Below are positions 15,601 to 40,282 of a stretch of 64,000 nucleotides of DNA, piece by piece. The notes under the pieces are model-generated. The model searched no databases. It saw nothing but the letters and a program-made list of their open reading frames with translations, and was not told the origin of the DNA. The position numbers and the translations under genes were made by a program. Position 1 is the stretch's first letter, and the number at the start of each line of letters is the position of its first letter. Source of the stretch: Patescibacteria group bacterium (GTDB lineage: Bacteria > Patescibacteriota > Patescibacteriia > 2-12-FULL-57-11); NCBI GenBank assembly GCA_004297205.1, contig SCUL01000002.1, forward strand, positions 786,893 through 850,892, read 5' to 3'.

Positions 15601-16167
15601 CACATCACCACCAAGAACGGCGAGTCGATGGTGTTCGTCCGCGTCGAGGACGAGACGTCCGGCGTCGAAATCGTGGTCTTCCCGCGCGTCTATGCCGCGC
15701 AGCCGGAGTTGTGGACGGAAGACGCGGCGATCGTGGTGTCGGGCAAGATTTCCGACAAGGACGATGAGTTGCGGTTTTTGGCGAACCAGGCGGTCGTGGT
15801 CAGCGCGCAGACGGTGCGCCAGGGTATCGCAGCGCTTCGGAGCGGCGCCATGATGGCCGCGCAGGCGCCGCGGCCGCCCGCGGCCGCCGCCCCGCCGCAG
15901 ACGGGCGCCGATGCCGCACCGCGCACCATGCCCAGCATGCCGAGCGTGACCATCAACCTGCCGGACGCGCCGACACCGGAGCTCGCGCAGGAATTGAAAT
16001 CGGTGTTCGAACAATGTCCGGGCGGACTGGTCGTCTTTTTGGAAATCGGAAAAGGGGAGCGACCCAAACGCATTGAAACGCAGTTTCGGATCGGTTGGAG
16101 TCCGCAGGTCGCAGGCCGCATTTGCGCGCTTCCCGGCATCGGCGGCGCGCGCGTCGTCGGCGCATAG
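12646..16167 (+). CDS. dnaE: DNA polymerase III alpha subunit (DnaE type)
   Basis: 1173 aa; N-terminal PHP domain HLHVHSHYSLLDG...ITDHG, polymerase core, OB-fold; typical length. Confidence 0.9.
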   Translation: MRFVHLHVHSHYSLLDGLGQIPALVARAKELGMDALAITDHGAMYGAIEFYEECVKQQIKPIIGMEAYVAPRGMRDKTARVDDRAYHLTLLAENLAGYRNLIKITTAAHLDGFYYKPRVDLEFLRTHAEGVIALSGCLNGQIPRALEVKDDAKAEELLKTYQEIFGRDNFFLEVQDHEEIPEQVERNAQLILLADRLGVPLVATKDCHYIHADDREAQDVLLAIGTGKTLEDPTRFSMRDADYSLTSPEDMARAFAHRPDAIENTGKIADRCSVTIELGKWVFPEFPIPDGLTADEFLRREAEAGLRGKGQMIPEYQKRLDYELDIIKTKGYATYFLVVADYTKWARAQGIISTTRGSAAGSVVSYGIGVTTVDPLAYKLPFERFLNPFRPSPPDIDMDFADNKRDRVLDYVKNKYGADRVAQICTFGTMAARGSVRDVARALGYPYGLGDRVAKMIPMGSQGFHMTIARALKETPELQQVYDSEPDVKRVIDLAQKIEGCARHTSVHAAGVVIAPGPLTDWMPLQKEAGGENVITQYEMHASEQSGILKMDFLGIRNLSILDTAVEIVEKTKGVKVDLLNLPLDDKKTYDLLARGQTTGLFQLGGDGMTKYIIELQPATIFDLMAMVALYRPGPIESIPEYIRRKRNPRLVRVLDPRMKEILSMSYGIITYQDDVLLIAIHLAGYDWAEADKLRKAMGKKIPKEMAAQKEKFLAGCVKGGMTEDKAIDLWKLIEPFAAYGFNKAHAASYAIVAYQTAYMKANYPAEYMAAVMTNESGDMPTVASAINECAKMGIKVLPPDVNSSLATFTYIDDTQVRFGLNAIKNLGGDTVAALIAERKANGPFTDLTDLARRLPTKVMNRKAVEALAKSGALDALGERNAILGNVEELVRFNKEAAAHAVSQQASLFTAGGGLGAETVRLKAVEPATKRDILSWEKELLGMYVSEHPFRDVAAAAGDLLPIAKLGEMKKGAFAVIGGMLQAPKHITTKNGESMVFVRVEDETSGVEIVVFPRVYAAQPELWTEDAAIVVSGKISDKDDELRFLANQAVVVSAQTVRQGIAALRSGAMMAAQAPRPPAAAAPPQTGADAAPRTMPSMPSVTINLPDAPTPELAQELKSVFEQCPGGLVVFLEIGKGERPKRIETQFRIGWSPQVAGRICALPGIGGARVVGA

Positions 16168-16217
16168 CGTGTTCCCGGCGGCGCGGTGTGGTATAGTGAT
16201 GGGGACTTGAGGAGGAT

Positions 16218-17687
16218 ATGCCCCCGAAAAAGAAACCCGCAGCCAAGAAACGCGTTGCGCCGCGTCGCAAGAAGGGCGACCTGGAGCCGTCCGCCGAACT
16301 CGCGGCAGCCGTGACGCCGCCCGCACCGCCGTGGGCCGTCCCGCCGCCGAGCGATTTTATTGCGCCGCCGTCCGTGGTCCCGGAAGAGCACATGGTATCG
16401 CTGGACGTCGACACCGTGCACGACGCGCCGACGACGCTCGCCATCAAAGGCCACGGCGAGGCGGCGGATCTCCCGATCGACCACAACGAGCCGGTCCGCC
16501 ACATCGCCGTCGGCCGCCCCACGCCGTCGCCTGCAGCACGCTCGACCGCCGTGCCGCGCGCCGCGCGTCCGGCCGTCCACCTTTCCGTCTACCGCAAGCT
16601 GGCCACCACCTTCATCGGGTTGGCCGTGCTCTTGCTCGGTTTCGTGTTGTACCTGTCCTTCACCCGCGCCGCGGTCACCGTGGTGCGCAGCGCCCTGCCG
16701 ATCTCCACCACCTTCACGGCCAAGGTCGCGCCGGAACCGCAGGACGCCTCGACCGTGCCCGGCGCGGTGCTCGAAACCGTGGCCGAAGGAACCAAGACCG
16801 TGGCCGCGAGTGGGGAGAAGACCATCGTCGAAGGCAAGGCCTGCGGCGCGGTCACCATCGTCAACACCCAGGCCAAAGCGCAGCCGTTGGTGGCGACGAC
16901 GCGCCTGCTCTCGCCGGAAGGCGTGCTGTTCCGACTGGAGAGAAACGTGACTGTCCCTGCCAACGGTCGCCTGGAAACGCGCGCCTGCGCCGATCAGCCG
17001 GGCAAGGCCGGCGACATCGACCCGACGCGCTTCACCATCCCGGGACTTGCCGCGGCGCTCCAGGAGAAGACCTACGCCGTATCCACGGCCAGCATGACCG
17101 GCGGGGCCGTCGAAGTGTCGGTGATCACGCAGCAGGAAGTCGACGCCGCAGTGGCCGCCTACGCCAGAGAAGTCGCCGGTCAGGCCGCGGAGACGCTCAA
17201 AAAGCTCCTGTCCCGACCGGAAGTCGGCAGCGGCGTGTTCTTCAAAGAACAGGTGGTACGCCGCGAGACGACCGCCAAGGTGGGGGAGTCGCAGCCGACC
17301 TTCGACGTGACCGTGGCGGTGCACGTGGAAGCCGTTTTCTATGACAAGCAGACGCTGCTCCGCGTCGCCGAAGCATCGCTCCGTGCCGCCGCGCCGGCCG
17401 ACAAGGAAGTGCGCGGCATCACCGCCGACGGGCTCACCGTGGAACTCGTCGCCAGCGACACCGCCGCCAAATCCGCGACGCTCTCCGTGACCGTGCCGGG
17501 CGAGGCGGTGCTCAAAGAGACCCACGAGGCCTTCGATCCGGAAAAGTTGACCGGCCTGTCCGTCGAAGACGTGCAACGGGACCTGGGGTCGCTCGACGGC
17601 GTGGAATCCGTCACCGTGAAGATCACCCCGGCCTTCCTGAAGCGCCTGCCGAATTTGGCGGATCATATCGATATCACGTTCGAGTAA
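16218..17687 (+). CDS. hypothetical membrane-anchored protein (basic N-terminus MPPKKKPAAKK, Pro-rich linker, one TM helix, large extracytoplasmic domain)
   Basis: 489 aa; TM LATTFIGLAVLLLGFVLYLSF; no recognisable catalytic motif. Confidence 0.55.
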   Translation: MPPKKKPAAKKRVAPRRKKGDLEPSAELAAAVTPPAPPWAVPPPSDFIAPPSVVPEEHMVSLDVDTVHDAPTTLAIKGHGEAADLPIDHNEPVRHIAVGRPTPSPAARSTAVPRAARPAVHLSVYRKLATTFIGLAVLLLGFVLYLSFTRAAVTVVRSALPISTTFTAKVAPEPQDASTVPGAVLETVAEGTKTVAASGEKTIVEGKACGAVTIVNTQAKAQPLVATTRLLSPEGVLFRLERNVTVPANGRLETRACADQPGKAGDIDPTRFTIPGLAAALQEKTYAVSTASMTGGAVEVSVITQQEVDAAVAAYAREVAGQAAETLKKLLSRPEVGSGVFFKEQVVRRETTAKVGESQPTFDVTVAVHVEAVFYDKQTLLRVAEASLRAAAPADKEVRGITADGLTVELVASDTAAKSATLSVTVPGEAVLKETHEAFDPEKLTGLSVEDVQRDLGSLDGVESVTVKITPAFLKRLPNLADHIDITFE

Positions 17688-17700
17688 AGAACCGGCGTAG

Positions 17701-17731
17701 GGGCGGGCCGATGTGCCCGCCCTTTGCGTTT
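17701..17731 (+). terminator. intrinsic terminator GGGCGGGC-cgatgt-GCCCGCCC followed by TTTGCGTTT
   Basis: Perfect 8-bp GC stem plus T-rich tract directly after the stop of the 16218..17687 gene; overlaps the upstream ATG at 17724, which supports thrS starting at 17763. Confidence 0.6.
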
Positions 17732-17762
17732 CGCAAGGAAATGCGGCACGATAGATGCCGTT

Positions 17763-19565
17763 ATGCCCGCCCAGAAACAACAGTTCCCCATCGACACCGT
17801 CCGCCATTCGACCGCCCACCTTCTGGCCGCCGCGGTCAGCGATCTCTACCCCGGCACCAAGCTCGGCGTCGGCCCGGTCATCGAAAACGGCTTTTTTTAC
17901 GATCTCCAGACGCCCCAGCCGATCACGGTCAATGACCTGCCGAAGATCGAAAAGCGCATGCGCAAAATCGCCGAGCGCAGCGAAGCCTACGCGCGCGAGA
18001 ATATGCCGCTTGACCAGGCCATCTCCTTCTTCAAGGACATGGGCCAGAATTTCAAGGTGGAACTGCTGACCGACCTCAAGGAGAAGGGGACGACCAAGAT
18101 CAACGCGGAAGAGCAGCAGGACGTCGACGCGGCACGTCCTGACGTGGCCTCGGTCTACCGCACCGGGAAGTTCGTGGACCTGTGCCGCGGGCCGCACGTG
18201 GCCACCACGCGCGACCTCGGCGCCTTCAAGCTGACCAAGGTCTCCGGCGCCTATTGGCGCGGCAACGACAAAAATCCGCAGCTGACCCGCATCTACGGGT
18301 TGGCCTTTGCCACGCAGGAAGAATTGGACGCGCACCTGAAGATGATGGAAGAGGCGGAGAAGCGCGACCACCGAAAACTCGGCAAGGAGCTTGAGCTCTT
18401 CACCGTCATCAACGAAATCGGCCTGGGGCTGCCGCTCTTCTACCCCAAGGGCGCGCTGCTGCGCCGGCTGGTGGAGAACTACATCATCTCCGAGCAGGAG
18501 AAGCGCGGCTACGTGCCGATTTGGATTCCGCACATCACGAAGGGCGAGCTCTACAAGATTTCGGGCCACCTCGACAAGTACGACGCCATGTACTCGCCCA
18601 TGAAAGTGGACGAGGACGACTACTACTTGAAGCCGATGAACTGCCCGCACTTCATGATGCTCTACCGGCAGACCCCGCATTCCTATCGGGAGCTGCCGAT
18701 GCGCTGGACGTGCACCACCACCAACTACCGCTACGAAAAGCACGGGGAACTCTCCGGGCTGACCCGCGTCCGCTCGCTGACCCAGGACGACTGCCACGTC
18801 TTCTGCATGCCGGACCAGATCGAGAAGGAGATCTCGGTCATGCTCGAGATGATCGGGAAAACCTACAAGGTATTCGGTTTCAAGGAGTTCTGGGTGCGTA
18901 TCTCCTTGCGCGATCCGGCCAACCCCAAGAACTACCTGGGCAGCGACGAGGTCTGGAACATGGCCGAAGGCGCGTTGCGCAAAGTCGTAAAAAAGACCGG
19001 CTGGAACCATAAGGAAGCCACGGGCGAGGCCGCCTTCTATGGTCCCAAGCTCGACTTCATGATGAGGGACGCCATCGGCCGCGAATGGCAGCTCTCCACG
19101 GTCCAGCTCGACTTCAACCTGCCGGAGCGTTTCGGGCTTGAATACGCCGGTGAGGACGGGGAGAAGCACCGCCCGGTCGTCATCCACCGCGCCATCCTCG
19201 GCTCGACGGAGCGTTTCCTCGGCATCATGATCGAGCACTACGCCGGCGCATTCCCGACGTGGCTGGCACCCGTCCAGGTGCAGATCGTGCCGGTCGGCAA
19301 AGCACACATCCGCCCGGGCAAGAAACTGGAGAAGCTGCTCACGGACGCCGGAATGCGCGCCCACTGCGACGACGCCAACGAATCCGTCGGCTACAAGATC
19401 CGCAAAGCGGAAAAAGCCAAGGTGCCGTATATGCTTGTGGTCGGCGACAAGGAGAAATCCCTCAAGAAACTCACTGTTCGCCGCCGCGGTGAAGAAAAGC
19501 AGAAGAGCATGGCGCTCAGTGCCTTCGTGAAGAAGGTCCAGAAAGAGATCGCCGGCTACAAGTAA
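17763..19565 (+). CDS. thrS: threonine--tRNA ligase, short form lacking the N-terminal TGS domain
   Basis: ~600 aa starting MPAQKQQFPIDTVRHSTAHLLAAAV (second-domain HxxxH motif); class II catalytic core and C-terminal anticodon-binding domain present. Confidence 0.85.
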   Translation: MPAQKQQFPIDTVRHSTAHLLAAAVSDLYPGTKLGVGPVIENGFFYDLQTPQPITVNDLPKIEKRMRKIAERSEAYARENMPLDQAISFFKDMGQNFKVELLTDLKEKGTTKINAEEQQDVDAARPDVASVYRTGKFVDLCRGPHVATTRDLGAFKLTKVSGAYWRGNDKNPQLTRIYGLAFATQEELDAHLKMMEEAEKRDHRKLGKELELFTVINEIGLGLPLFYPKGALLRRLVENYIISEQEKRGYVPIWIPHITKGELYKISGHLDKYDAMYSPMKVDEDDYYLKPMNCPHFMMLYRQTPHSYRELPMRWTCTTTNYRYEKHGELSGLTRVRSLTQDDCHVFCMPDQIEKEISVMLEMIGKTYKVFGFKEFWVRISLRDPANPKNYLGSDEVWNMAEGALRKVVKKTGWNHKEATGEAAFYGPKLDFMMRDAIGREWQLSTVQLDFNLPERFGLEYAGEDGEKHRPVVIHRAILGSTERFLGIMIEHYAGAFPTWLAPVQVQIVPVGKAHIRPGKKLEKLLTDAGMRAHCDDANESVGYKIRKAEKAKVPYMLVVGDKEKSLKKLTVRRRGEEKQKSMALSAFVKKVQKEIAGYK

Positions 19566-19586
19566 GAGACCCCCTCGGCCACGCAG

Positions 19587-19645
19587 CTCCCCCTTCGCAA
19601 GGGGGAGCATTACAAAACCCCCGCCATGGCGGGGGTTTTGTTTCG
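19587..19645. terminator. two adjacent hairpins between convergent thrS and the 640-aa gene: CTCCCCCTT-cgc-AAGGGGGAG, then AAAACCCCCGCC-atg-GCGGGGGTTTT followed by GTTTCG
   Basis: Perfect palindromes flanked by A/T runs on both sides, so usable on either strand. Confidence 0.65.
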
Positions 19646-19647
19646 CA

Positions 19648-21570
19648 TTATCGAGGTGGCTTGCTGCGCCCGATGCCGATGTAGCTGCTGGAGCTGCTCT
19701 TGCCTGCGCCGGCGCGGAAGATGCTGGCGCGATCACCCGTCGCCGGGGTCTCCATGATGTCGCGTACCATCTTGTCCATCTTCTGGAATTGGATGACTTC
19801 CTGGGAGGTCATGGTTTCTTTCGGCCTCGGCCCGCCGCCGAACAGCCGGCGGAAGAAACCGACCTTGGGCTGCGGCTTCATGGCCTCGGCCAGCCGCGCG
19901 TTGTCTTTCATCAACAGTTCCCAGTACATGGCGGAGAACTTGTCCATGTCCGCGCGCTCTTCGAAGGAGCGCTTGGGATCGCGTACGGCGGCGAGGCTGA
20001 ACGCCTCCATGAAATCGGTCTTGTTGGAGAAGTCGCGGGCGCTTTTGGCTTCGATGTTGCCGATCTCGGCCGCGGCCCGGTTCACGTCCATGTCAGGATA
20101 CAGCTCTTGGGCGCGTTCGCGGCGGGCGAGTTCCTCCGGTTTTTCTCCCTGTGCGAACCAAGCTTCCTCTTCACCCGGCTTCAGCTCGTTGCGCTCGCGG
20201 CGCAGCCGATCCTGTTCGGCGCGGACCTTGGCTTGGAGTTCGTCGATGCGCGCATTGACTCGTTCAACGGAACCCCGGCCAATTTCAGCGGCTTTGGCGG
20301 TTGCTTCGGCTCGGAAACGCGCTCTGAACTCTTCGTCGGTTTCCGCGACGGGTTCCACGGGCAGGTTCTCCGGCACGTTGGTGTCCGGCCCGGCTTCCAT
20401 GGCGCCGACCAACTCGTTGGCCTGGCGACGGGCGGTTTCCTCCGCGGTCGGCGGGGGAGGCAGGTTGCGCAACTCCTCGAGCGCGGCGGCTGTTTCGGTC
20501 GGCGCCTTACCGAGTTTGACTTTCTGTTCGTCCAGCCATGTGCGGAACTCCGCGGCGCTTTTTGCTTTCTCGCCCGCCTTGCTGCGGGCTTCGCTCTCGG
20601 CCAGGCCGGCGGCGATGATGGCGGCCATCTCCTGCTTCGCGCGGCGGCGCTCTTCGAGGCGGGCGCGGAATTCGGCCGCTGCCGTTTCTGCCGCCTCGAT
20701 GTTTGCTTTCTCTTTGACGGCCTTCCTGGTGCGCTCGATCAACTCGCGCTGCTTGGCCGCGGCGCGTTCAGCGCCCGCCGTTTCGTCTGAGACGTAGCGG
20801 TCCCACATCTTGCGGGCCTTGGAAATGTCTTTGACGCGGCTCTGGAAAGCATCCGCGCTCATGTCGCCCCGGCCGTAGCGGTCGAGTGCGTCCTCCACGG
20901 TTTGTACGGCACCGCGGATCAGCGACTCGCCGGCCTTGGGCAGCGCACCCGATTCGAGCGCCTGGCTGTAGGTATTTCGGAGGTCAACCAGCACCGCACG
21001 ATCCGTTTCCGCGGCCTCAAAACTTTCCCGTGCAGCCTCCCGGCCCTTGATGCGTGCCGCGCTGCTGCGCTTGAGGGTGCCCTTGGCAAGCAAACGGTCT
21101 TCTTTCTCCCACGGGACGTCTCCCTTGAGCGCGTGGACGCGCTGGCGCAGGCTGTCGATGCCGTTCGCCAGCGCGGCGCGGGCCTCTGGGTCGGTTTCCG
21201 TCTCCAACTGCTCGGCCGTCAGGTCGTACTGTTTCTGGAGGTCCTTGAGTTGCGTCTTCAGGTCGGACGGTTGTTCGCGCAGCCTTTCTGGAACGCGGAC
21301 GGTCTGGGTGGTCTCGCGCGGCATTTCCATGCGCGCGTAGTCCTCGGCGTGTTCGTCGATGAAGGCTTGGAGCGGGGCGATCTCCTCATCAATTTTTTTG
21401 AGTTCGGCAGCGGAAGCGCCTTCGCCTTCGAGCCGGGCGCGTTCGGCCTGCAACTCGAACATCCGGGCCGAGACGTCGCCAAGATAGGCCTCGTTGATTT
21501 CGGTGCTTTCCACTTTCTTCGGCTCCTGCTCCGCGGCGTTGCGCCGCATGTCCCGTGCCCCTTCAGCCAT
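19648..21570 (-). CDS. large hypothetical protein, highly charged (E/R/A/K-rich), predicted all-alpha/coiled-coil, no TM segment
   Basis: 640 aa; high GC3 codon bias; upstream on the minus strand a TATACT hexamer and SD-less leader; no domain recognised. Confidence 0.55.
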   Translation of the reverse strand: MAEGARDMRRNAAEQEPKKVESTEINEAYLGDVSARMFELQAERARLEGEGASAAELKKIDEEIAPLQAFIDEHAEDYARMEMPRETTQTVRVPERLREQPSDLKTQLKDLQKQYDLTAEQLETETDPEARAALANGIDSLRQRVHALKGDVPWEKEDRLLAKGTLKRSSAARIKGREAARESFEAAETDRAVLVDLRNTYSQALESGALPKAGESLIRGAVQTVEDALDRYGRGDMSADAFQSRVKDISKARKMWDRYVSDETAGAERAAAKQRELIERTRKAVKEKANIEAAETAAAEFRARLEERRRAKQEMAAIIAAGLAESEARSKAGEKAKSAAEFRTWLDEQKVKLGKAPTETAAALEELRNLPPPPTAEETARRQANELVGAMEAGPDTNVPENLPVEPVAETDEEFRARFRAEATAKAAEIGRGSVERVNARIDELQAKVRAEQDRLRRERNELKPGEEEAWFAQGEKPEELARRERAQELYPDMDVNRAAAEIGNIEAKSARDFSNKTDFMEAFSLAAVRDPKRSFEERADMDKFSAMYWELLMKDNARLAEAMKPQPKVGFFRRLFGGGPRPKETMTSQEVIQFQKMDKMVRDIMETPATGDRASIFRAGAGKSSSSSYIGIGRSKPPR

Positions 21571-21630
21571 AAAAAGCGTGGTAAAAGTCAGCGAAAGTAT
21601 ACCATATGATAAAAAAAAGAGCGTCCCCAG

Positions 21631-22089
21631 TCAGGAGGACGTCACCAGCGAGAATATCCGCTTGTGCCCGGCGCGCCGCGCGTAGGTCTCCTCCCGGCCG
21701 TCCGGCCAGCGGAGATGGACGCAATCCACGCAGTCGCTGCCGCCGCTGCGGCGTCGGATGCGTTCCTCGCCGGCCAGCGCGAGCGGGCTGACCGGTTCGA
21801 GCTTCAGGATACGGATGGTCTGCTGTCCGACCCTGCGCGCCGGGACGCCGCCGATGCGGCCCTCGACGCGGTAGGGGATGCCGACCTGCCGCCCCGCGGT
21901 CCGCCTCGTCCCAGGGGTGGTGCCCTGGAGACGGACGACGAGCTTCTGCAGCATCTCGTCCGGCGGCGGCGGCCGCAGGTCCCACGGGTCGCGGGCCTTG
22001 AGAAACAGGCAACGCGTCCATTCCAAGAACTTCACTTCGATGTCGAGCGATGCGTAGCCGCTGACCGGCGACGCCTGTGGTTCGGCCAT
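21631..22089 (-). CDS. hypothetical protein
   Basis: 152 aa; strong GC3 bias; preceded on the minus strand by TTGACA-N17-TATGCT and SD GGAGGGAGGAG; the overlapping same-strand ORF 21563..22021 is R/P/G-rich and judged spurious. Confidence 0.45.
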   Translation of the reverse strand: MAEPQASPVSGYASLDIEVKFLEWTRCLFLKARDPWDLRPPPPDEMLQKLVVRLQGTTPGTRRTAGRQVGIPYRVEGRIGGVPARRVGQQTIRILKLEPVSPLALAGEERIRRRSGGSDCVDCVHLRWPDGREETYARRAGHKRIFSLVTSS

Positions 22090-22118
22090 GGCTTTTCTTC
22101 TCCTCCCTCCGAACGCAG

Positions 22119-22148
22119 CAGCATACGCGCGACGTTCCGGCGTGTCAA
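22119..22148 (-). promoter_or_regulatory. sigma70-like promoter TTGACA-N17-TATGCT driving the minus-strand gene 21631..22089
   Basis: Reverse complement of 22119..22148 reads CTTGACAcgccggaacgtcgcgcgTATGCT, then the SD and ATG. Confidence 0.5.
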
Positions 22149-22162
22149 GCGCAGCGGTTTGA

Positions 22163-22191
22163 TTGACGAAAGGCCGATTTTTTGCTATGAT
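22163..22191 (+). promoter_or_regulatory. sigma70-like promoter TTGACG-N17-TATGAT driving the plus-strand gene at 22240 (divergent with the promoter above)
   Basis: TTGACG at 22163-22168, 17-bp spacer, TATGAT at 22186-22191; SD GGAGAAGGA lies before the ATG at 22240. Confidence 0.5.
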
Positions 22192-22239
22192 ACACCCTGT
22201 TCATAACAGATTGCGCCTATGCCCCCGCGTGGAGAAGGA

Positions 22240-22920
22240 ATGGGCTCGCCCATGAGCGAAGTGGAAAGCGAATTGGCCGATGTGCACAAGATGGAGAAGG
22301 AACGCGCCGAGGCGGTCCGTTCTCCGGAAGAGCGCGTCGCGGATGTTGTGGCGTTGTGGGGTCGGTCGGACCGCGAGCGCATGAATCCGGACGATCTGGC
22401 CAAGTCCCTTGTCCAGATGGATCGACTGGTCCGTGATATTGAATTGCTTTCCGAGTCGTCTCCCGAACAAGGCGCGACTTTGGCGCTTGCGGACAAGATC
22501 GCGAAAGACGTCGAGGGACGCGCGCAGAAGCGCGAAGTGAGCGAGCAGCGGGAGTGGATGCTGCGGCTGCAGACCGCCAAGGACATCCATGACCTCGCCG
22601 AGGGCATCAACGACGCCGAGCAGCTCACCTTCGAGGCCGTCCTCGAATCACAGAAGGCGCCGGAGCAGATCGGTCTTCAGATGCGCCTGGACATCGCCCG
22701 CTCCGCACAGCGCAGCTACGAGGCGCTGGCCGGACAGGTCTATGAGATGATCAAAGAGGGCAAGAACCTGCCTCAGGGCCATCGCACCCAGCTCATCGAG
22801 CAGGGCAAGCGCTTGGTCGGGCTCATCAAGCATGAGCAGCAGATCTCCGAGCTGGCGGAACGCAATTTCCTCGACAACCTCGAAGCGCAGGTCGCCAAAG
22901 CCGAACGTGAAGCCGCCTAA
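22240..22920 (+). CDS. hypothetical coiled-coil protein
   Basis: 226 aa acidic/helical; start chosen at the ATG with SD GGAGAAGGA (the track ORF begins at 22219). Confidence 0.5.
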   Translation: MGSPMSEVESELADVHKMEKERAEAVRSPEERVADVVALWGRSDRERMNPDDLAKSLVQMDRLVRDIELLSESSPEQGATLALADKIAKDVEGRAQKREVSEQREWMLRLQTAKDIHDLAEGINDAEQLTFEAVLESQKAPEQIGLQMRLDIARSAQRSYEALAGQVYEMIKEGKNLPQGHRTQLIEQGKRLVGLIKHEQQISELAERNFLDNLEAQVAKAEREAA

Positions 22921-22931
22921 TCAGGCAACGT

Positions 22932-22959
22932 AAAACCCCCCGCCATGGCGGGGGGTTTT
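22932..22959. terminator. palindromic terminator element AAAACCCCCCGCC-atg-GCGGGGGGTTTT, a second copy of the element at 19614
   Basis: Lies between convergent genes 22240..22920(+) and 22985..23344(-); near-identical to 19614..19639 apart from one extra C:G pair. Confidence 0.6.
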
Positions 22960-22984
22960 CTGATAAAAAACGAGCTGCCGGGGG

Positions 22985-23344
22985 TCAGGCAGCGACGCGG
23001 TAGATGGCGCGCGGTCCGCGCTCGAGCGTGGCCTCGGCGTTCGGCAGGCGGAGGATCACCTTGGTGATCGTGACGTCCCGCTTGGGGCCGAACCAACGCT
23101 CCTCCATGCGGGCCTGCATGCGGTCCGCGAGGACCAGGGTGCAGGTAACCTGGCCGGGGCCGACCATCCGGACCCGGTCGGTGCGGTAGCGGATGCCGTT
23201 CGGGAAGCCCTCGGTGACGATCAGGACTTCGGCAGTGGCGAGCCACTGCAGGTCGGGGGACTCTCCCCGCGGCGCGGCGAGGTAGAAGCACCTCTGTCCG
23301 AGCTGCAGGAAGACGTGTCCCACGTATTGCGGATTGATCAGCAC
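22985..23344 (-). CDS. hypothetical protein
   Basis: 119 aa; strong GC3 bias; no motif recognised. Confidence 0.45.
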   Translation of the reverse strand: MLINPQYVGHVFLQLGQRCFYLAAPRGESPDLQWLATAEVLIVTEGFPNGIRYRTDRVRMVGPGQVTCTLVLADRMQARMEERWFGPKRDVTITKVILRLPNAEATLERGPRAIYRVAA

Positions 23345-23367
23345 GATCCCTCCTTCTGGAGGGGAAC

Positions 23368-25146
23368 CTAGCTGGCTTTGTCGGCCCTGTCAAGGGCCGG
23401 GGACACGGCGGATTCTGCCGGCGGAAGGACGGTGACGCGGACCATCGGGTAGCGTTCCTGGTCGGCCATCTGGCGCAGCGCGCCTTCGGGATCTTTGGCG
23501 GCGGCCAGCGTGGCGTCGGCGCGCAGCTGGGCGTGCTCGGCCGGCAAGATTACGAATGCGTCGCCGAACTCGGCGGCGAAGGATTCACGTGCCGTCTGGT
23601 TGGCGCGCACCGGGCGCTCCAGGCCGCGCAGTTTCAGCGTCTCCTGGCCACGGCGGTTCATGGCGTCGTGCAGCGGCTCCAGATGCCCGTTACGCAGGCG
23701 ATAGACGAGGATGCCGTTGCCCAAGCGCCCGGAGATGCTGGCGGCGCGGGTTTCCAGGAGGCGCAGCCGTTCCTCCTCTGGGAGACGTTCTTTCAGGCGT
23801 TCGGCCAAGGTGTAGCGGGCGGGCCGGGACAGGCCGCGGAAGGCATCCGATGCCATGACGGCAGCCACGGACTCCTGCCGCTCGCGCAGCGCATCCTCGA
23901 GCGCCCCGATCGTGGCGCGTTCCTCGTCTCGAAGATCCGGTTCGCGCAGCCGGGCCAACAGGCCGGGGTCGCGGATGATCTGCTCTTTGGCCGCGGCTTC
24001 TGCCAGCAGCGCGCGTTCATCGGAAGCCAGCGGCGGCTCGCCCGTCTGGAGGATCTTCTCGACCCGGGCTTCGGCATTCTGCATGTTGCTGCGCAGCTCC
24101 TGGAGCAGACCGCGGACGGCAGCGAGTTCTTCCCGCTGCTGCGTGAGTTCTTCGACCACGGACCGGGCGTTTCCCCAGTCATGCTGGGAGGCTTTATGTT
24201 TGTAGAAATCGGTTTTCTCCGCCGCAGAATAAATCGGGAGACGAGCAATGCGTTGATAGACGTACCCTTCCGTTTTTTTGCCTTGGCGATGTTCCTTCTT
24301 GGACAGCCGGCGCATCTCCGTCACCGCATCCGGCGCCTGTTCTTTCTCGAACCGGGCCAGAAAGTCGGCCGCGCCGCGTTTGAGCGACATCAACAGGTCG
24401 TCTTGGCCGCCTTCCAGGAATTTCGCTGCTTCACCGCCTTTGAGGTAGCGGCCGGCGCGGTCCAAGAGCGGTTTCAAGCGTTCTTTGGACGTTTCGTAGT
24501 CCTTGCGCAGGCGCCGCTCTTCGTCGACGTACTTCCCCAGATAGCTTTTCCACTCCATTTCATCCGCGTTGAGGGTTTTTCTTCCGACCAGGGCTTCCGC
24601 CGTGTCCTTGTCCGCGCCGACGATTTCTTCCTCGGAGATCCGTTCCGGGATGACGGCCAGGGCCACGGAAGCGGGGAGTTCGAGCGCGGTTTCCCGGTCT
24701 CCGCGGGCGCGCAGATCGACGTCCCGCAGGAGGAGGTCCCTCTCGGCCAGGGCGTTTTCGCTGGCCGAGGCCAGCAGGTCTTCCGCGCGAGTTCGCCGCG
24801 GCCGGAAGATTTCGGCGCCGGCGTCCCCCGTGGAAACCGCTTCCCGGTCCATGGCCAGCGTTTTCAAGTCGTACTCGGCCACGGCAAAGATGTCGTTGGC
24901 AACATGCGCCGCCGCTTCTTCCGGGGCGTCCCGTCCGTCAACAAAGACAACGAGTCCGGTTTCCGGGTCGGTCCTGACCGCGAATTCCGGCGTGCCGGAG
25001 GCGCGATCCTCGATCTCGAAATAGCGCAGGGGATGACGCTTCGTTTCCACGCCGGACTCGCGGCGCTTGCCGACCGGCGTGCGCCTGTCGCTGCCTTCAG
25101 CTCGGGTTTCAGGAAAGATGTCTGCAAGCGGTCGGGCGCGTTCCAT
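23368..25146 (-). CDS. large hypothetical protein, charged/low-complexity; paralog of 25684..27807
   Basis: 593 aa from the internal ATG (MERARPLADIF...); the N-terminal block PETGLVVFVDGRDAPEEAAAHVANDIF resembles DSGTFIFVAGENAEPTAVEGIVDSAL of the downstream paralog. Confidence 0.55.
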   Translation of the reverse strand: MERARPLADIFPETRAEGSDRRTPVGKRRESGVETKRHPLRYFEIEDRASGTPEFAVRTDPETGLVVFVDGRDAPEEAAAHVANDIFAVAEYDLKTLAMDREAVSTGDAGAEIFRPRRTRAEDLLASASENALAERDLLLRDVDLRARGDRETALELPASVALAVIPERISEEEIVGADKDTAEALVGRKTLNADEMEWKSYLGKYVDEERRLRKDYETSKERLKPLLDRAGRYLKGGEAAKFLEGGQDDLLMSLKRGAADFLARFEKEQAPDAVTEMRRLSKKEHRQGKKTEGYVYQRIARLPIYSAAEKTDFYKHKASQHDWGNARSVVEELTQQREELAAVRGLLQELRSNMQNAEARVEKILQTGEPPLASDERALLAEAAAKEQIIRDPGLLARLREPDLRDEERATIGALEDALRERQESVAAVMASDAFRGLSRPARYTLAERLKERLPEEERLRLLETRAASISGRLGNGILVYRLRNGHLEPLHDAMNRRGQETLKLRGLERPVRANQTARESFAAEFGDAFVILPAEHAQLRADATLAAAKDPEGALRQMADQERYPMVRVTVLPPAESAVSPALDRADKAS

Positions 25147-25275
25147 ACCGCACAATTCTAGCAGGAACAGGCCATCTTGACAGGCGGGCGCAGAACGGCT
25201 AGGGTTGCCGGTCGGCAAGGAAGTGTGGAAATGGCCCGACTGCGCTACCATGTGCGCATGGAAAGGGGACGTCTC

Positions 25276-25659
25276 ATGTCGTTTTTCGCGCGACTTGTCG
25301 GCGCCGACAGCGGCATCGACGAGCACCCTTCGTGGCTTCTGCAGTGCCTGCACTACGCGCGCATCCGCAAGAACCCCGACGGATCGCTCCTCCTCATCGT
25401 CGAGGCCGACGACAAGATCGGCATGCACGGCACCTTCGCGCGGCTCCAGCCGCGCCTCGTCACCGCCGCCGGGGTCGAGATTCCGCTCACGGTCGTCGAG
25501 TACCTGCGCGACTGCGGCTTCCCGGTGCGCTGTACCGCGCGTCCGGCCGACGCCGTCACGTTCGACGCCGACGGCAAGGTCTCCGTCCAGAAGCTCCGCC
25601 TGAGCTTCAATGGCGTGACCAAGGACCTCGAGGTCACCAACGCGAAAGAGGGCTCCTGA
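25276..25659 (+). CDS. hypothetical protein
   Basis: 128 aa starting MSFFARLV... 7 nt after SD AAAGGGGA; divergent from the 593-aa gene; TTGACA at ~25166 upstream. Confidence 0.45.
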   Translation: MSFFARLVGADSGIDEHPSWLLQCLHYARIRKNPDGSLLLIVEADDKIGMHGTFARLQPRLVTAAGVEIPLTVVEYLRDCGFPVRCTARPADAVTFDADGKVSVQKLRLSFNGVTKDLEVTNAKEGS

Positions 25660-25683
25660 CGTGCAGGTCGCCCTCGTTTTTTA

Positions 25684-27807
25684 TTACGTGGGAATCCGCA
25701 GTACCAGGTGGGGACGCTCCGAGGTATTTTTGAGCCGCTCGGAGTTGGTTTTTGCGCTGCGGTTGGGGTCGCCTTTGAGTTCGGCCAGGATTTTTTCGAT
25801 GCCCTCGGTGCCGACGCGCTCCTGCTGGCCCAGCACGAATTCTTCGGCTGAGGAGGGAACGATGACAATCTGGTCGCCGGCCTGGACGCCGATATCGACG
25901 GCGGCATTGGCCTGCTGACTGACTGTCCGCTTGGTGGTGGAGAGGATGCGCTGCGCTTCCTTGTCTTCCTGATTGACCTCCAGATCCTCCGAAGTTTTTC
26001 CGGCTTTCGCGCCGGTATCCACCTTCGTGACTTTGCCGTCGCGGCCGACCTTGAGGACGGTCAGGGCTTCACCGGGCTTGCCGCGGAGCATCAGACGGCG
26101 GGCCTGGAGCAGTTCGGTGGCCTGCTTCGACTCAATGACGCCCAGGTTCTTCAACCGTTGCACGACCACGAACCGGCCCTCGCGCGACAAGCCCGTGAAG
26201 CGCGGGTCCTTCAGGAGCGCCATAGGATTCTCCTCAGCCCGCTTCATTTCGTAGGTCAGGTCGTCGGCCGTCTTGCTTTCCCCCTCGGAGAGCGACGGTT
26301 CGATCAGACGGTCGGCTTTTTCCGGGTCCTTGGGGGCGGCCGATTCGAAGCTGCGCAGCAGCAATTCCAGATTCGTCTCCGGCGGGTACGACAGCGCCTG
26401 GTAGAGCGCCAGTCGCTCCGCGGGGGATTCCAACAGTCGCTGGACCGACGGGGAGTTCAGGAACGTCATAGCTGCCTGGGTGGCGGCGTTTCGTTCCGTA
26501 GCGGTCTTGGGGTCCCGGATTTTTTTGAAGAAGGAGTTGAGTTTTTCCGCGCTGCCCTTGACCGCGGCCGCCGCCTCGGGGGAGAGTTCGGGCGCGGAAA
26601 AATTCTTGGCCGTTTCCGGCGTCAGCATGATTTCCACTTTCAGCCGTTCGAGGAGGATAGGCAGTGTTTCCGTGGCGAGCTTGGCGAGTTCTGGATCGTT
26701 TTTCAGTTCGCGGTAGGTTTCCTCGAACTGTTCGTCCGTTTGCGTCAACCGGGCCTGCCGTGTTTCTTCCAGCTTGCGGGCCAAGATCTTGGCGACTTCC
26801 ATGTTGTTCATCAGCTGCTGATGTTCCGGACCGACCGCAGTCAGCGCCTCTTGCGCCTCGTACACCTTGCTGATGTAGGCGCGTTGCTCCGGATTGAGCG
26901 ATTCATCGCCGTCGAGATCGGATTTCGTCGGCCACTTGATGAGCGGATCGCCGCCCAACCAATTTTTGACTTCGGCGCGGATGGCGTCGTATTTGGTTTT
27001 GGCGTCCTCAACGTTCTGTGTGGAGGCGCGTTCCTGCTCTTCCAATCCGCGCGTGCCTTTGTTCACGAGTTCCCCGATCACGGCTTTCAGTTCGGCCTTG
27101 GATTTGTCATCGCCGTAGAATTCCTGCGGCGTGATCTCCTCGTTAAACACCTGGCCGACGACGAAAGGGGGGACTTCGATGGCCGAGGCCTTGTCGCCGC
27201 GCGCCAGCTTGTGGGCGTTCTCGCGGACCACGGCGTCGAGCGCGCCGCGTGAAGCCGCGGACATGAGCCGCGTGTCGATCGACGAGGCGCGGGCGCGGGA
27301 CGTTTCCCCGTGGGCCAGGCTGACCGCCTTCTGCTCCGGCCCCGAAGATTCCTTCAAGCGTTCCAATGCGGAGTCAACGATGCCTTCGACGGCCGTCGGT
27401 TCGGCGTTTTCCCCGGCGACGAAAATGAAGGTCCCACTGTCCGGGTTGACGTCCAGGCCGGCCTTCCCGCGTTTGCCGGCCACATTGCTGGCGGCTTCGA
27501 ACACCGGACCTTTCGGTTCCTGCTCACGTACGGTTTCGGGAGCCGTGGGGGCGATCTCGGGCTTGGCGCCGGGGCGGGAGGTCCGTTTCCGTTCCACGTC
27601 GGATTCCGCCGGCTGTTCGGCAACGTCGATCTCCTTCAAGCTGCTGTCCGCCAGATAGGTCTGCCCGGTCACGTCGATGCGCGGCGGCGGGGGCGGTACG
27701 TAGTCCTTCGGAACCGCCCTTTCCGGGGGCACGGGCGGTACGGGAGATTCGCGGCGCAGCGGCCGCTTCGTCGAACCGCCTTTTTCCGTCATGGTTCCGC
27801 GTTCCAT
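25684..27807 (-). CDS. large hypothetical protein with a Pro-rich N-terminus and a long charged helical body; paralog of 23368..25146
   Basis: ~708 aa; start uncertain (ATGs at 27807 and 27792; the track ORF extends to 27894 and would overlap miaA). Confidence 0.55.
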   Translation of the reverse strand: MERGTMTEKGGSTKRPLRRESPVPPVPPERAVPKDYVPPPPPRIDVTGQTYLADSSLKEIDVAEQPAESDVERKRTSRPGAKPEIAPTAPETVREQEPKGPVFEAASNVAGKRGKAGLDVNPDSGTFIFVAGENAEPTAVEGIVDSALERLKESSGPEQKAVSLAHGETSRARASSIDTRLMSAASRGALDAVVRENAHKLARGDKASAIEVPPFVVGQVFNEEITPQEFYGDDKSKAELKAVIGELVNKGTRGLEEQERASTQNVEDAKTKYDAIRAEVKNWLGGDPLIKWPTKSDLDGDESLNPEQRAYISKVYEAQEALTAVGPEHQQLMNNMEVAKILARKLEETRQARLTQTDEQFEETYRELKNDPELAKLATETLPILLERLKVEIMLTPETAKNFSAPELSPEAAAAVKGSAEKLNSFFKKIRDPKTATERNAATQAAMTFLNSPSVQRLLESPAERLALYQALSYPPETNLELLLRSFESAAPKDPEKADRLIEPSLSEGESKTADDLTYEMKRAEENPMALLKDPRFTGLSREGRFVVVQRLKNLGVIESKQATELLQARRLMLRGKPGEALTVLKVGRDGKVTKVDTGAKAGKTSEDLEVNQEDKEAQRILSTTKRTVSQQANAAVDIGVQAGDQIVIVPSSAEEFVLGQQERVGTEGIEKILAELKGDPNRSAKTNSERLKNTSERPHLVLRIPT

Positions 27808-28753: not shown

Positions 28754-28774
28754 TGGCGCAGCATGCTGCGCCAC
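28753..28774 (+). terminator. perfect 22-bp palindrome GTGGCGCAGCATGCTGCGCCAC immediately after the miaA stop
   Basis: 10-bp stem with a 2-nt loop; no strong U-run (common in high-GC genomes). Confidence 0.45.
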
Positions 28775-28781
28775 TACAAGC

Positions 28782-28810
28782 TTGACACGCAGGCGCGGCG
28801 CAGGTATCTT
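28782..28810 (+). promoter_or_regulatory. sigma70-like promoter TTGACA-N17-TATCTT upstream of the gene at 28838
   Basis: Hexamers and spacing read directly; followed by SD GGAGGA and the ATG. Confidence 0.5.
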
Positions 28811-28837
28811 GGCACGGCTGTCCACGGAGGAAACGAG

Positions 28838-29239
28838 ATGGCAGAGTCGATCGAGATCGAGAAGGGCCGCACCCCGCGCAACCGCGATCGGACGTCGGTC
28901 CTGCAGCGGAAGGTGGAGCGCAAGGCCGCCCGGGACAAGGTCCTGAGCGACGCGCTGCACAGCCGGATCACCGGCGTGCTCGAGCGGCTCGTCGGCCGCG
29001 GGGACATCAAGTGGTTCGTCGAGCTGGGCAAGCGCCCCGCCGATCCGCGGGTCACGGTCACGTTCCGCATCGGGCGGAAGGGCACGGTGAAGCCGATCGA
29101 GCGCGACTTCGTGGTCGCGACCGACATGCACATGGCGCGCATCGTGCTGATGGAGATCCGCTGCGCGGTGATCTCCGTCCCGCCCGAGATGCGCGACGAG
29201 CGCATCGCCGAGCGCATCCTCGCGCTCTTCAAGAACTGA
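28838..29239 (+). CDS. hypothetical protein
   Basis: 133 aa from the ATG with SD GGAGGAAACGAG; basic N-terminus; no motif recognised. Confidence 0.45.
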   Translation: MAESIEIEKGRTPRNRDRTSVLQRKVERKAARDKVLSDALHSRITGVLERLVGRGDIKWFVELGKRPADPRVTVTFRIGRKGTVKPIERDFVVATDMHMARIVLMEIRCAVISVPPEMRDERIAERILALFKN

Positions 29240-34638: not shown

Positions 34639-34667
34639 GCAAGACCCCCGCACTGGCGGGGGTCTTG
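34639..34667 (-). promoter_or_regulatory. GC-rich hairpin CAAGACCCCCGC-actg-GCGGGGGTCTTG between the inserted gene and rplA; terminator and/or possible L1 autoregulatory structure
   Basis: 12-bp perfect stem; on the minus-strand transcript it is followed by CCTTTTCC and lies ~85 nt upstream of the rplA start. Confidence 0.4.

Positions 34668-37897: not shown

Positions 37898-40282
<2,385 letters not shown>

Follow-up and report, generated by a model that had tools for sequence, protein, structure and literature searches.

What do the genes lying between thrS and miaA do in a groundwater Patescibacteria group bacterium (GenBank GCA_004297205.1, contig SCUL01000002.1)? Within the window, the whole stretch of 64,000 nucleotides analysed here, the initial annotation saw an island of three large and three small hypothetical proteins and proposed a structural or scaffold system. 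Our analysis shows that the interval holds seven genuine but uncharacterised protein genes, restricted to a small set of ultra-small bacteria from groundwater: A (640 aa), s152, B (233 aa), s119, C (592 aa), D (about 127-142 aa) and E (707 aa). The three large minus-strand ORFs, A, C and E, lie where they had been placed (Table 1), while the small hypotheticals turned out to be four, of 152, 233, 119 and about 127-142 aa. The ATG of C lies one codon inside the 593-aa ORF first read there, and its product is identical to NCBI TAK05363.1 (EPO33_05370).

Table 1. Positions of genes and sequence signals in the thrS-miaA interval, numbered along the window.
Feature	Position	Strand	Basis or remarks
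26-nt perfect palindrome AAAACCCCCGCCATGGCGGGGGTTTT	19614..19639	.	between stops of thrS (+) and A (-)
Gene A, 640 aa	19648..21570	-	ORF, GC3 phase, orthologues, dN/dS 0.16, structure model
Promoter-like site of A, CTGACT-17-TATCAT	21634-21606	-	sequence match
Terminator-like hairpin and T-run after s152	21641-21622	-	overlaps promoter-like site of A
Gene s152, 152 aa	21631..22089	-	PYRV and WPDGREE motifs; GGAGG Shine-Dalgarno
Back-to-back divergent promoter-like sites	22120..22191	.	10/12 each
Gene B, 233 aa	22219..22920	+	ORF, GC3 phase
Second, near-copy palindrome AAACCCCCCGCCATGGCGGGGGGTTT, 26 nt, perfect	22933..22958	.	between stops of B (+) and s119 (-)
T-rich hairpin	22993-22974		beside second palindrome
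Gene s119, 119 aa	22985..23344	-	GTG start, GGAGGGA Shine-Dalgarno, GC3 0.93
Gene C, 592 aa	23368..25146	-	paralogy to E, dN/dS 0.14
Promoter-like site of C, CTGTCA-17-TAGAAT with TG	25155..25183	-	stops 8 nt short of ATG
Gene D, 127 aa from MSFFARL	25276..25659	+	alternative in-frame starts 25258, 25231 (142 aa)
Gene E, 707 aa	25684..27807	-	ORF, GC3 phase, structure model, dN/dS 0.10

High-GC DNA yields spurious long ORFs, such as the 1348-aa antisense ORF at 15690-19736, and the block could in principle be a set of mis-framed or spurious frames of this kind. That reading is refuted. Every ORF of the block lies in the frame where GC3 is high and GC2 low, the codon-position pattern expected of real genes, which supports the coding status of all seven; full-length orthologues exist at 39-87% identity, and AF2 models E with confidence, as a protein of several domains (pLDDT 73.8, pTM 0.61). 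Against the orthologues of locus L004, dN/dS is well below 1, with the values of Table 1 for E, C and A (thrS, for comparison, 0.06) and 0.37-0.71 for B, s119 and s152; the block genes are under purifying selection. Other features attributed to them need correction. Codon bias is not especially good, since A, B, C and E, with GC3 values of 0.75-0.78, sit at the low end and most window genes reach 0.81-0.94; s152, at about 0.9, falls within that range. Nor are the proteins of low complexity: their sequence entropy is 3.85-3.94 bits with 1-3% low-entropy windows, and the E/R/A/K content of E (37%) is close to that of gatB (35%). The absence of TM segments was confirmed in all seven products (maximum Kyte-Doolittle 19-residue mean at most 1.0), and none has a hydrophobic N-terminal signal, so that the products are taken to be cytoplasmic and a cell-surface location, as formerly suggested, is unlikely. 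A, B, C and E are acidic, with net charges of -10 to -13.

The block comprises five or six transcription units, some of them convergent and each with its own promoter-like site, which rules out a single operon; s119 is co-transcribed with C. Separate, partly convergent units count against a scaffold function. The claim that the best promoters of the window lie here holds for their density, with six sites between 19 and 29 kb against 1.0+/-0.9 expected (0.60/kb in the block, 0.18/kb elsewhere), but the top single match (11/12) is at 53770. In the divergent pair, TTGACA-17-TATGCT faces s152 and TTGACG-17-TATGAT, with a TG, faces B. The distance between the promoter-like site of C and its ATG implies a leaderless or near-leaderless mRNA, and the site is conserved at the DNA level in L004, L006 and L007; a plus-strand TTGACA overlapping its -35 could, from its position, serve D. 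Palindromic terminators had also been proposed, and indeed both palindromes stand at convergent gene junctions, where their sequence suggests that they are probably bidirectional intrinsic terminators; their 18-nt core occurs three times in the window, where 0.13 copies would be expected.

Searches of Pfam, NCBIfam, PHROGs, PADLOC and PDB sequences gave no match for any of the seven products, and Foldseek gave no significant match in PDB or BFVD. In agreement with the initial annotation, then, Pfam and NCBIfam recognise no domain, and none of these searches shows homology to a known housekeeping protein. An exhaustive search of 1.84 billion representatives with the E/C profile retrieved only eight relatives, two loci were found among 185,579 species genomes, and the A profile found one locus in a metagenome scan; lineage specificity is thus strongly supported.

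Among these relatives, the order gatB/miaA/E/D/../A/thrS/p489/dnaE is kept in L001, L002, L004 and L006, and in L007 and L009 up to the contig ends; miaA/E/D/.../A/thrS persists to about 22% E identity, at which E-like and D-like genes still adjoin miaA or miaB. The conserved core consists of E, D, s152 (a conserved small protein) and A, whereas C, restricted to the closest relatives, and the s119 and B slots are variable. The s119 slot holds at least three sequence types; at the position of B there is either the helical, acidic B type (L004, L010, L001) or, in L002, L006, L007 and L009, an unrelated type of 142-157 aa. A, B and s152 stand at 51-54% identity where thrS stands at 92%. Such fast evolution of A, B and s152, together with the replacement of B and s119 by unrelated genes, is a pattern that runs against a scaffold and fits conflict or interaction genes too.

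GC content equal to that of the rest of the window, together with the conserved gene order, shows that the block is a vertically inherited neighbourhood of a small clade of high-GC groundwater Patescibacteria and not a transferred island. The word "island" and the many hypothetical genes could suggest a remnant of a prophage, an integrative element or a defence island, as could the best BFVD matches, weak ones to tail or tape-measure proteins (E>=0.13). This origin is largely refuted: no integrase, tRNA or flanking repeat was found at the block, PHROGs and PADLOC returned nothing credible, IMG/VR, INPHARED and PLSDB (tblastn for plasmids and phages) contain no relatives on viral or plasmid DNA, and the chromosomal position is constant across deep divergence. 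In this sense, given the empty PHROGs and PADLOC searches and the lack of viral or plasmid relatives, the block is neither a mobile element nor a defence system.

On sequence comparison, C and E are diverged tandem paralogues, as had been claimed. BLASTP aligns a 133-aa block (31% identity, E=4e-8) that includes the peptides quoted originally and a second, colinear C-terminal block of 160 aa (25% identity, E=3e-8). The gene between them had been described as divergent; D is transcribed away from C but towards E, with the stops of D and E 24 nt apart, and a D-like gene stands tail-to-tail with E in all lineages examined. In the model, E begins with a disordered Pro-rich arm (residues 1-101), absent from C, that carries a conserved PPPP-R-IDVTG-T-(F/Y)LA motif. 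Residues 104-231 form a small alpha/beta domain, 234-566 a helical bundle and 568-665 a beta-rich domain, after which come two helices and a terminal strand, RPHLVLRIPT. The supposed all-helical nature of the proteins therefore applies to the model of A and fails for E, which has beta structure in its N- and C-terminal domains. The two families can be aligned end to end with 35 invariant columns, but across the whole superfamily the invariant residues besides the initiator Met are just G125, P213 and R551. With so few invariant residues, none catalytic-looking, E and C plausibly are non-enzymatic, to judge from their appearance. With a long helical bundle in front of a beta-rich domain of some 100 residues, E recalls the layout of STAT proteins, and the cores of STAT1, 2, 3 and 5, with Ig-like domains, are among the best Foldseek PDB matches of E; all are non-significant (E>=0.03, probability <=0.47, TM<=0.3), the likeness is generic, and E has neither an SH2 nor a DNA-binding signature.

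Protein A, unrelated to E/C by sequence comparison, is all-helical and modular, with a 114-residue helix in its model. Its N-terminal domain (residues about 1-255) is conserved and leads into a variable, hydrophobic-poor A/E/K/R-rich helix (about 255-395). The PPENLPV motif at 400-405 is invariant; the C-terminal domain beyond it, also conserved, includes KPQPKVGFFRRLFGGGP at 565-581, before a basic Ser/Gly tail. The nine orthologues compared share a near-invariant KVGF[FW][RK][RK][LI][FL]GG; orthologues range from 534 to 764 aa, with conserved ends and a middle of differing length. In A itself the segment reads KVGFFRRLFGG, and the membrane-targeting sequence of E. coli MinD is KGFLKRLFGG (PMC5471200). 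Seven of the nine residues of GFxxRLFGG are identical and the other two conservative (F for L, R for K), with equal spacing of aromatic/Leu and basic residues. As in the MinD and FtsA helices, the helical hydrophobic moment is high, the second-highest in the protein, and the segment has low pLDDT within flexible linkers, with Pro and Gly on either side, as expected of a helix that folds on a membrane. The region is kept in the distant A orthologue of L009 (hhalign 95.4%, E=1.8e-8). The amphipathic membrane-targeting helix of FtsA is GSWIKRLNSWLRKEF, and an FtsA-like GSWLRRIGL stands at the analogous position in an L013 protein that has no detectable homology to A. KVGFFRRLFGG is, from this analysis, a probable, predicted membrane anchor; it may just as well be a linear motif that binds a protein. 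Unlike MinD and FtsA, A lacks a ParA/MinD ATPase or actin-like domain, and its motif is internal, about 60 residues before the C-terminus, where theirs is terminal; membrane binding by A is a prediction.

Bacterial coiled-coil-rich or intermediate-filament-like scaffolds include crescentin, FilP, Scy and DivIVA. A resembles them in being large, acidic, all-helical, cytoplasmic and free of enzymatic domains, with conserved ends, a variable rod and a lineage-specific distribution. However, no sequence similarity to them was found, and its heptad periodicity is no stronger than in the thrS and gatB controls, so a cytoskeletal protein of the classical coiled-coil type, one of the roles first suggested, is unsupported. 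The long helix is closer to a single-helix spacer than to a coiled-coil rod. Compared with ER/K single alpha-helix spacers, residues about 255-345 form one continuous predicted helix, of differing length among orthologues, with 43-50% E, R, K, D and Q, only 10-20% hydrophobic residues and 4-5 oppositely charged i/i+4 pairs per 30 residues; Ala is high (23-37%) and the charge pattern less regular than in canonical ER/K helices. Residues 104-144, with the same region of four other orthologues, cover most of the 62-residue model of Effector-associated domain 9 (EAD9, PF19962), but all five scores among the nine family members are below the Pfam gathering threshold of 25 bits (best 22.7; A of the window 18.8), the other four members are unmatched, and the matched region is a compositionally biased helical hairpin in a neighbourhood free of NTPase or effector partners.

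Do these proteins work together? The flanking gatB, miaA, thrS, p489 and dnaE are as syntenic as the block, so conserved order alone is no proof of functional coupling. A possible though doubtful explanation is that the genes have no common function and are independent, fast-evolving, lineage-specific orphans, adjacent through the collinearity of small genomes. The separate units with their own promoters and terminators, the lack of relationship between A and E/C and among the small proteins, and the replaceable B and s119 slots fit it well. It accounts less easily for the E-D tail-to-tail pair, which at least five divergent contig lineages keep even where E identity is down to about 22%, for the tandem duplication of an E-like gene around D, which arose twice independently (in L013, too, a D-like gene lies between the copies), or for L009, where the order E, D, s119, B, s152-like, A-like outlasts the insertion of an unrelated 698-aa gene.

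The rapid divergence of A, B and s152, the higher dN/dS of B, s119 and s152, the variable cassettes, the repeated duplication of E-like genes, the sub-threshold EAD9 matches and the disordered arm of E with its linear motif would suit a module for host or partner interaction or conflict, that is, episymbiont effectors, adaptors or immunity-like proteins under diversifying pressure, possibly with non-classical export. We consider this unlikely: signal peptides and TM segments are lacking, genes for an NTPase, toxin, nuclease or secretion are missing from the neighbourhood, PADLOC found nothing credible, the EAD9 scores have the limits described above, purifying selection on E and C is strong (dN/dS 0.10-0.14), and the locus, which lies amid housekeeping genes, is not mobile and lacks a viral or plasmid counterpart. 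The neighbours thrS, miaA, miaB and gatB might instead suggest a nucleic-acid or translation-linked role, for instance as tRNA- or ribosome-associated factors. Highly charged proteins, E-like genes that adjoin miaA or miaB in all lineages seen and the divergent start codons of E and miaA, 22-49 bp apart, agree with it; yet it is quite improbable, as A, B, C and E carry a net negative charge, RNA-/DNA-binding or enzyme domains were not detected in the products, all other bacteria, which share these tRNA pathways, lack the families, and general collinearity accounts for the adjacency.

Our preferred reading, to which we give a tentative probability of about 0.38, is that the products form a lineage-specific, cytoplasmic, membrane-associated, non-enzymatic scaffold. 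It is drawn from the anatomy of proteins that have no structural neighbour, and the scaffold idea of the initial annotation remains plausible in view of the lack of catalytic-looking invariants, the modular helical A with its variable spacer and the MinD-like motif, its function being inferred. A would be the tether: its helical head and its tail are conserved, the spacer helix between them differs in length from genome to genome, and the hydrophobic/basic pattern of KVGFFRRLFGG, like that of the MinD amphipathic helix, would dock it at the inner membrane face. E may be a three-domain adaptor subunit, with C as its diverged duplicate where present, and its 100-residue proline-rich arm may offer the conserved linear motif to a partner; D, always tail-to-tail with E, is a candidate partner or regulator. 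In these bacteria, such a scaffold might serve in cell shape, in division, or in the organisation of the envelope or of attachment sites.

The window contains housekeeping genes of a Patescibacteria (CPR) genome, at 60-69% GC throughout, and seven uncharacterised genes (A, s152, B, s119, C, D and E) lie in it between thrS and miaA. In all seven ORFs, GC is highest at codon position 3 and lowest at position 2. Nei-Gojobori dN/dS values between the window genes and their orthologues in L004, the nearest sequenced relative among the related loci and contigs compared here (L001-L013), were 0.10 for E, 0.14 for C, 0.16 for A, 0.34 for D, 0.37 for B, 0.51 for s119 and 0.71 for s152, and 0.06 for the housekeeping genes thrS and gatB. 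The codon-position pattern and the dN/dS values indicate that these ORFs are real genes under selection, which speaks against the mis-framing that the initial annotation had named as its own refutation; that the block is an artefact is hardly conceivable. Protein C is identical to NCBI entry TAK05363.1 (EPO33_05370). A 1348-aa ORF at 15690-19736 (-), antisense to dnaE, p489 and thrS, has the wrong GC phase and is a spurious long ORF typical of high-GC DNA.

Genes of the block with their flanks, and parts of protein E
Feature	Position	Strand	Remarks
thrS	17724-19565	+	block flank
A	19648-21570	-	640 aa
s152	21631-22089	-	152 aa
B	22219-22920	+	233 aa
s119	22985-23344	-	119 aa
C	23368-25146	-	592 aa
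D	25276-25659	+	127 aa; possible upstream starts 25258 or 25231
E	25684-27807	-	707 aa
miaA	27830-28753	+	block flank
E, disordered Pro-rich arm	residues 1-101		conserved PPPP-R-IDVTG-T-(F/Y)LA motif
E, small alpha/beta unit	strands 104-131 and 215-224, helices 137-202		AF2 model
E, helical bundle	~330 residues		AF2 model
E, nine-strand beta domain	residues 568-665		AF2 model
E, C-terminal end			two helices, then terminal strand RPHLVLRIPT; AF2 model

The earlier description of the block needs several corrections. Four additional genes, not three, accompany the three large ones, and D, said to be transcribed divergently between the paralogues, is divergent only with respect to C and converges on E. 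Codon bias is not particularly good, as GC3 of A, B, C and E (0.75-0.78) falls at the low end and most window genes have 0.81-0.94. Neither are the proteins of low complexity: their entropy is 3.85-3.94 bits with only 1-3% of low-entropy 12-residue windows, and E/R/A/K residues make up 47% of A, 43% of C and 37% of E, compared with 35% of gatB. The statement that TM segments are missing does stand. By 19-residue hydropathy, no signal peptide, lipobox or TM anchor was found in any of the seven proteins (maximum ≤1.0, versus 2.38 in p489, a neighbouring membrane protein); a secreted or cell-surface location is thus unlikely, and the products are cytoplasmic.

The seven proteins have no detectable known relatives. 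As first noticed for its three large proteins, the block lacks recognisable domains: the proteins and their distant orthologues gave nothing above threshold against Pfam, NCBIfam, PHROGs and PADLOC, and profile searches of the PDB with E/C, A, D, s152, s119 and the E superfamily gave nothing significant. A literature search on Patescibacteria, coiled coils and the cytoskeleton returned nothing relevant. D, s152 and s119 do not form one small-protein family, the best pair (s152 versus s119) reaching 4% probability. The LxWPDGREE motif of s152 (residues ~123-147) gave a summed profile match of E=5.6e-5 to blades of the Photorhabdus PHL/PLL lectin beta-propeller; no single stretch was significant, only the repeats summed, and the match probably reflects a shared beta-hairpin motif only.

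The distribution of the block is clade-restricted. In word-indexed searches of 5.8 billion clusters, E retrieved just 10 proteins, C 7 and A 9, each of which either has no name or is entered as 'hypothetical protein [Patescibacteria group bacterium]'. An exhaustive HMMER search of 1.84 billion representatives (50% identity) with the E+C alignment brought up 8 proteins with E<=1e-3. Scanning 185,579 species-representative genomes yielded 2 loci; in the metagenome scan, the A profile located a single locus, in groundwater of Hainich H41. The known spread amounts to between about twelve and twenty metagenomic contigs, most of them of groundwater origin. Related contigs share the order gatB/miaA/E/D/(C)/s119-slot/B-slot/s152/A/thrS/p489/dnaE, in which the two slots are positions of varying gene content, and in every relative the block lies between miaA and thrS. 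Even distant E-like proteins (~20-24% identity) adjoin miaA or miaB and are followed by a D-like gene tail-to-tail. L009 keeps the whole block order despite an inserted 698-aa secreted-looking gene, and the last of its large genes is homologous to A (hhalign 95.4%, E=1.8e-8). Since the order is kept in distant relatives, the block is ancestral to the clade and vertically inherited, and with a GC content matching that of the window it is not the island initially proposed. In this sense, an origin from a prophage, plasmid or defence system was rejected: PHROGs gave no match and PADLOC a single non-credible one, tblastn of plasmids and phages with E gave no match, and viral contigs held no relatives of the block proteins. 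That the block is the remnant of a mobile element is accordingly very improbable. One 184-kb contig (CAZYLV010000001.1, L001/L005) is titled 'uncultured Gammaproteobacteria bacterium' and carries a Patescibacteria-type order (secE-nusG-L11-..-gatB-miaA-E-D-..-A-thrS-p489-dnaE; thrS and gatB 70-77% identity); its label is probably wrong.

Within the block, a core can be told from variable genes. E, D, s152 and A are found throughout, whereas C is limited to the closest relatives (the window, L004/L010, L006, L007 and a few short contigs), being absent from L002 and L001. In the B slot, L004, L010 and L001 carry the window type, which in L001 is extended to 435 aa (hhalign 95.8%), and L002, L006, L007 and L009 an unrelated type of ~150 aa (hhalign 0.3%); the s119 slot has at least three sequence types, two of them side by side in L007. 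Identity to L004 falls from 92% (thrS) and 90% (gatB) through 85% (E), 81% (D), 72.5% (C) and 66% (s119) to 54% (A), 52% (B) and 51% (s152).

E and C are true paralogues, and their similarity extends past the N-terminal block on which the tandem pair had first been recognised. BLASTP gives two colinear HSPs (N block E=4e-8, C block E=3e-8), the 17 sequences of both families can be aligned over their full length, 35 columns being invariant, and the joint profile retrieves both. In a distance tree C lies on a long branch and both E-like genes of L013 cluster together, a grouping which implies two or more tandem duplications around D. The AlphaFold2 (AF2) model of E from the 17-sequence alignment is usable (pLDDT 73.8, pTM 0.61), and it contradicts the all-helical description for E, which includes a beta domain and an alpha/beta unit; the model of A is indeed helical. 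The arm motif contains family invariants P40-42, D45, V46, T50, L52 and A53. Foldseek found no neighbour of the E model (best PDB E=0.029, best BFVD E=0.13). A was rejected by comparison as a distant paralogue of E/C. One E-like protein, P0027, shows a weak match to EAD9, the Pfam Effector-associated domain 9 (14.4 bits).

The A model (pLDDT 69, pTM 0.30) contains a single 114-residue helix at 239-352 and has no Foldseek neighbour in the PDB at E<1e-3. Among orthologues of 534 to 764 aa, the head (~1-255) and the tail (~405-610) are conserved and the middle is highly variable in length and sequence. Residues 255-345 of the window protein comprise 10-20% hydrophobic and 43-50% charged or polar residues, with an Ala content of 23-37%. 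Hydrophobic periodicity of 3.5, assessed against shuffles as a simple test and not a calibrated coiled-coil predictor, exceeded the 99th percentile in 3/86 windows of A, much as in thrS (2/82) and gatB (4/68), and a classical coiled coil or heptad-repeat rod is unsupported. The low hydrophobic content and the weak periodicity lead us to read the long helix as a single-helix spacer.

The tail of A contains the near-invariant KPQPKVGFFRRLFGGGP. Its 11-mer FFRRLFGGGPR has a helical hydrophobic moment of 0.75, the second-highest in A, and from its residues would form a short amphipathic helix of the MinD/FtsA type, with aromatic/Leu and Lys/Arg faces; AF2 confidence is low in this segment, which Pro and Gly flank. 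The core KVGFFRRLFGG is almost the membrane-targeting sequence KGFLKRLFGG of E. coli MinD (PMC5471200). However, it lies at 569-579 of 640, ~60 residues from the C-terminus, followed by a conserved helix (589-607) and a basic tail, whereas the MinD/FtsA motif sits at the extreme C-terminus. The distant L009 orthologue has FFGKVGNLFGRKG aligned at the motif. L013 encodes a 570-aa protein without detectable homology to A, in which the positional analogue GSWLRRIGL is reminiscent of the FtsA amphipathic helix GSWIKRLNSWLRKEF (PMC9098913). A itself is not a MinD/ParA ATPase, having no Pfam or NCBIfam match and an all-helical model. Those ATPases have a deviant Walker A P-loop ATPase domain. Five of nine A-family members match EAD9 (PF19962) at E<1, with 22.7 bits in the best orthologue and 18.8 bits for residues 104-144 of the window protein, all below the curated gathering threshold of 25 bits, and A was not assigned to EAD9.

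Promoter-like sites are concentrated in the block. Between 19 and 29 kb we found 6 sigma-70-like sites against 1.0±0.9 expected, and under the same rules the whole window has 0.60 sites/kb in the block and 0.18/kb elsewhere. The claim that the best promoters of the window lie here thus holds for the enrichment, but the single best site is at 53770. Four sites are intergenic and rightly oriented for A, s152, B and C, those of s152 and B lying back to back at 22120-22191. The C site (CTGTCA-17-TAGAAT) ends 8 nt before the ATG, implying a leaderless mRNA. The divergent C-D spacer (25147-25275) is strongly conserved at the DNA level in four genomes (window, L004, L006, L007), and at 25178-25183 the C promoter -35 overlaps a TTGACA on the other strand that could serve D. 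An in-frame upstream ATG of D at 25231 (MARLRYHVRMERGRL-MSFF) is kept in L004, which makes the true start of D uncertain. The palindrome TTGCCGACCGGCAA in this spacer is not kept in L004 or L006 and was discarded as a conserved element. Many orthologues of A, B and E (window 21570, 22219, 27807; L001-L009) begin with M-[A/P]-E-G or a similar sequence (MAEGAR, MPEGAR, MPEGRE, MPEGFS, MAREGFS). This start might serve N-terminal recognition or, in mRNAs with a short leader or none, set the context of translation initiation; it was judged too weak to be meaningful and may just reflect GC-rich codon usage or start context.

The palindromic terminators initially reported were recovered: AAAACCCCCGCCATGGCGGGGGTTTT at 19614-19639 and a 92%-identical copy at 22933-22958, at both convergent junctions (thrS with A, B with s119). 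The 18-nt core CCCCCGCCATGGCGGGGG is exact at 19618-19635 and 22937-22954 and has 2 mismatches at 34645-34662, i.e. 3 matches in the window against 0.13 expected. The block copies lie at convergent gene ends with A- and T-runs on their flanks, and the palindrome appears to be a stock bidirectional terminator of this genome. Beyond these terminators, the block promoters share no operator or repeat, and no Rfam family or tRNA was found anywhere in the window. Promoter-like sites and terminators thus divide the block into five or six transcription units, and it is not one operon. The stop codons of E and D are convergent and 24 nt apart (25657-25686), a tight layout (19-nt overlap to 35-nt gap) that all lineages share (L001, L002, L006, L007, L008, L009 and L013) except L011 (gap ~114 nt). 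The 3' ends of the E and D transcripts probably overlap, so that antisense or interference regulation would be possible.

Several neighbouring genes also deserve mention. p489 (16218-17687, +), a membrane protein of 489 aa without a Pfam match, crosses the membrane once and has a cytoplasmic N-tail rich in Lys and Pro; it is conserved between dnaE and thrS in L001, L002 and L004 (67-85% identity). Its tail segment LDVDTVHDAPTTLAI loosely resembles IDVTGQTYLA, the linear motif of the E arm, and by this likeness p489 may be a candidate membrane partner. An unrelated-looking 310-aa membrane protein encoded between the genes of ribosomal proteins L11 and L1 (34676-35608, -; a 290-301-aa gene there in L001, L002 and L006) starts like p489 with MPPKKK, a Pro-rich stretch and a TM helix. 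Between miaA and gatB lies a conserved 158-aa ORF (28763-29239, +; probable start MAESIEIEKG), 47-54% identical in L004 and L006; L001 has a 129-aa gene there and L002 none. Two small, highly charged, helical-looking ORFs, 40030-40266 (+) and 47192-47599 (-), have coding-like GC3 of 0.76 and 0.74, the latter flanked by ORFs 46305-47195 and 47605-48726.

Taken together, we propose that A would be a peripheral membrane tether, with a head, a variable spacer and a tail bearing an amphipathic anchor, that E and C would act as non-enzymatic adaptor or scaffold subunits and D as a partner or regulator of E, the four forming a membrane-associated structural assembly. We give this functional reading a probability of about 0.3-0.4. 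It is rather unlikely that the block goes further and specifies a cytoskeletal or scaffold apparatus of a kind not described before, anchored to the membrane and built from proteins with new folds (E/C, the A tether), organising the envelope or an attachment or division site; such an apparatus would be unique to one clade of episymbiotic Patescibacteria, whose cells lack many canonical shape and division factors.

The assembly has to be weighed against other explanations. The genes may share no function and be held together by collinearity alone, a possibility with a one-in-four sort of weight: synteny by itself does not prove functional linkage because the housekeeping flanks are equally collinear. 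Somewhat less probable is a fast-evolving interaction or conflict module, to which the replaceable cassettes, the repeated duplication, the speed at which A, B and s152 diverge and the sub-threshold EAD9 matches of A would point. A role in translation or with nucleic acids seems improbable.

Patescibacteria account for a substantial part of bacterial diversity, but many of their proteins lack a functional assignment and little is understood of how their cells work. In this context the block provides a concrete and well-delimited set of targets, although orphan families are common in CPR genomes and its importance is limited by its very narrow distribution: the E/C family offers a confident multi-domain model without sequence or structural neighbour, and protein A carries a testable candidate membrane-anchor motif. 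If there is no scaffold, the locus still documents orphan-gene birth, tandem duplication and cassette replacement within a collinear housekeeping region. If the scaffold reading is true, it would show an ultra-small episymbiont organising its envelope with parts invented in its own lineage.
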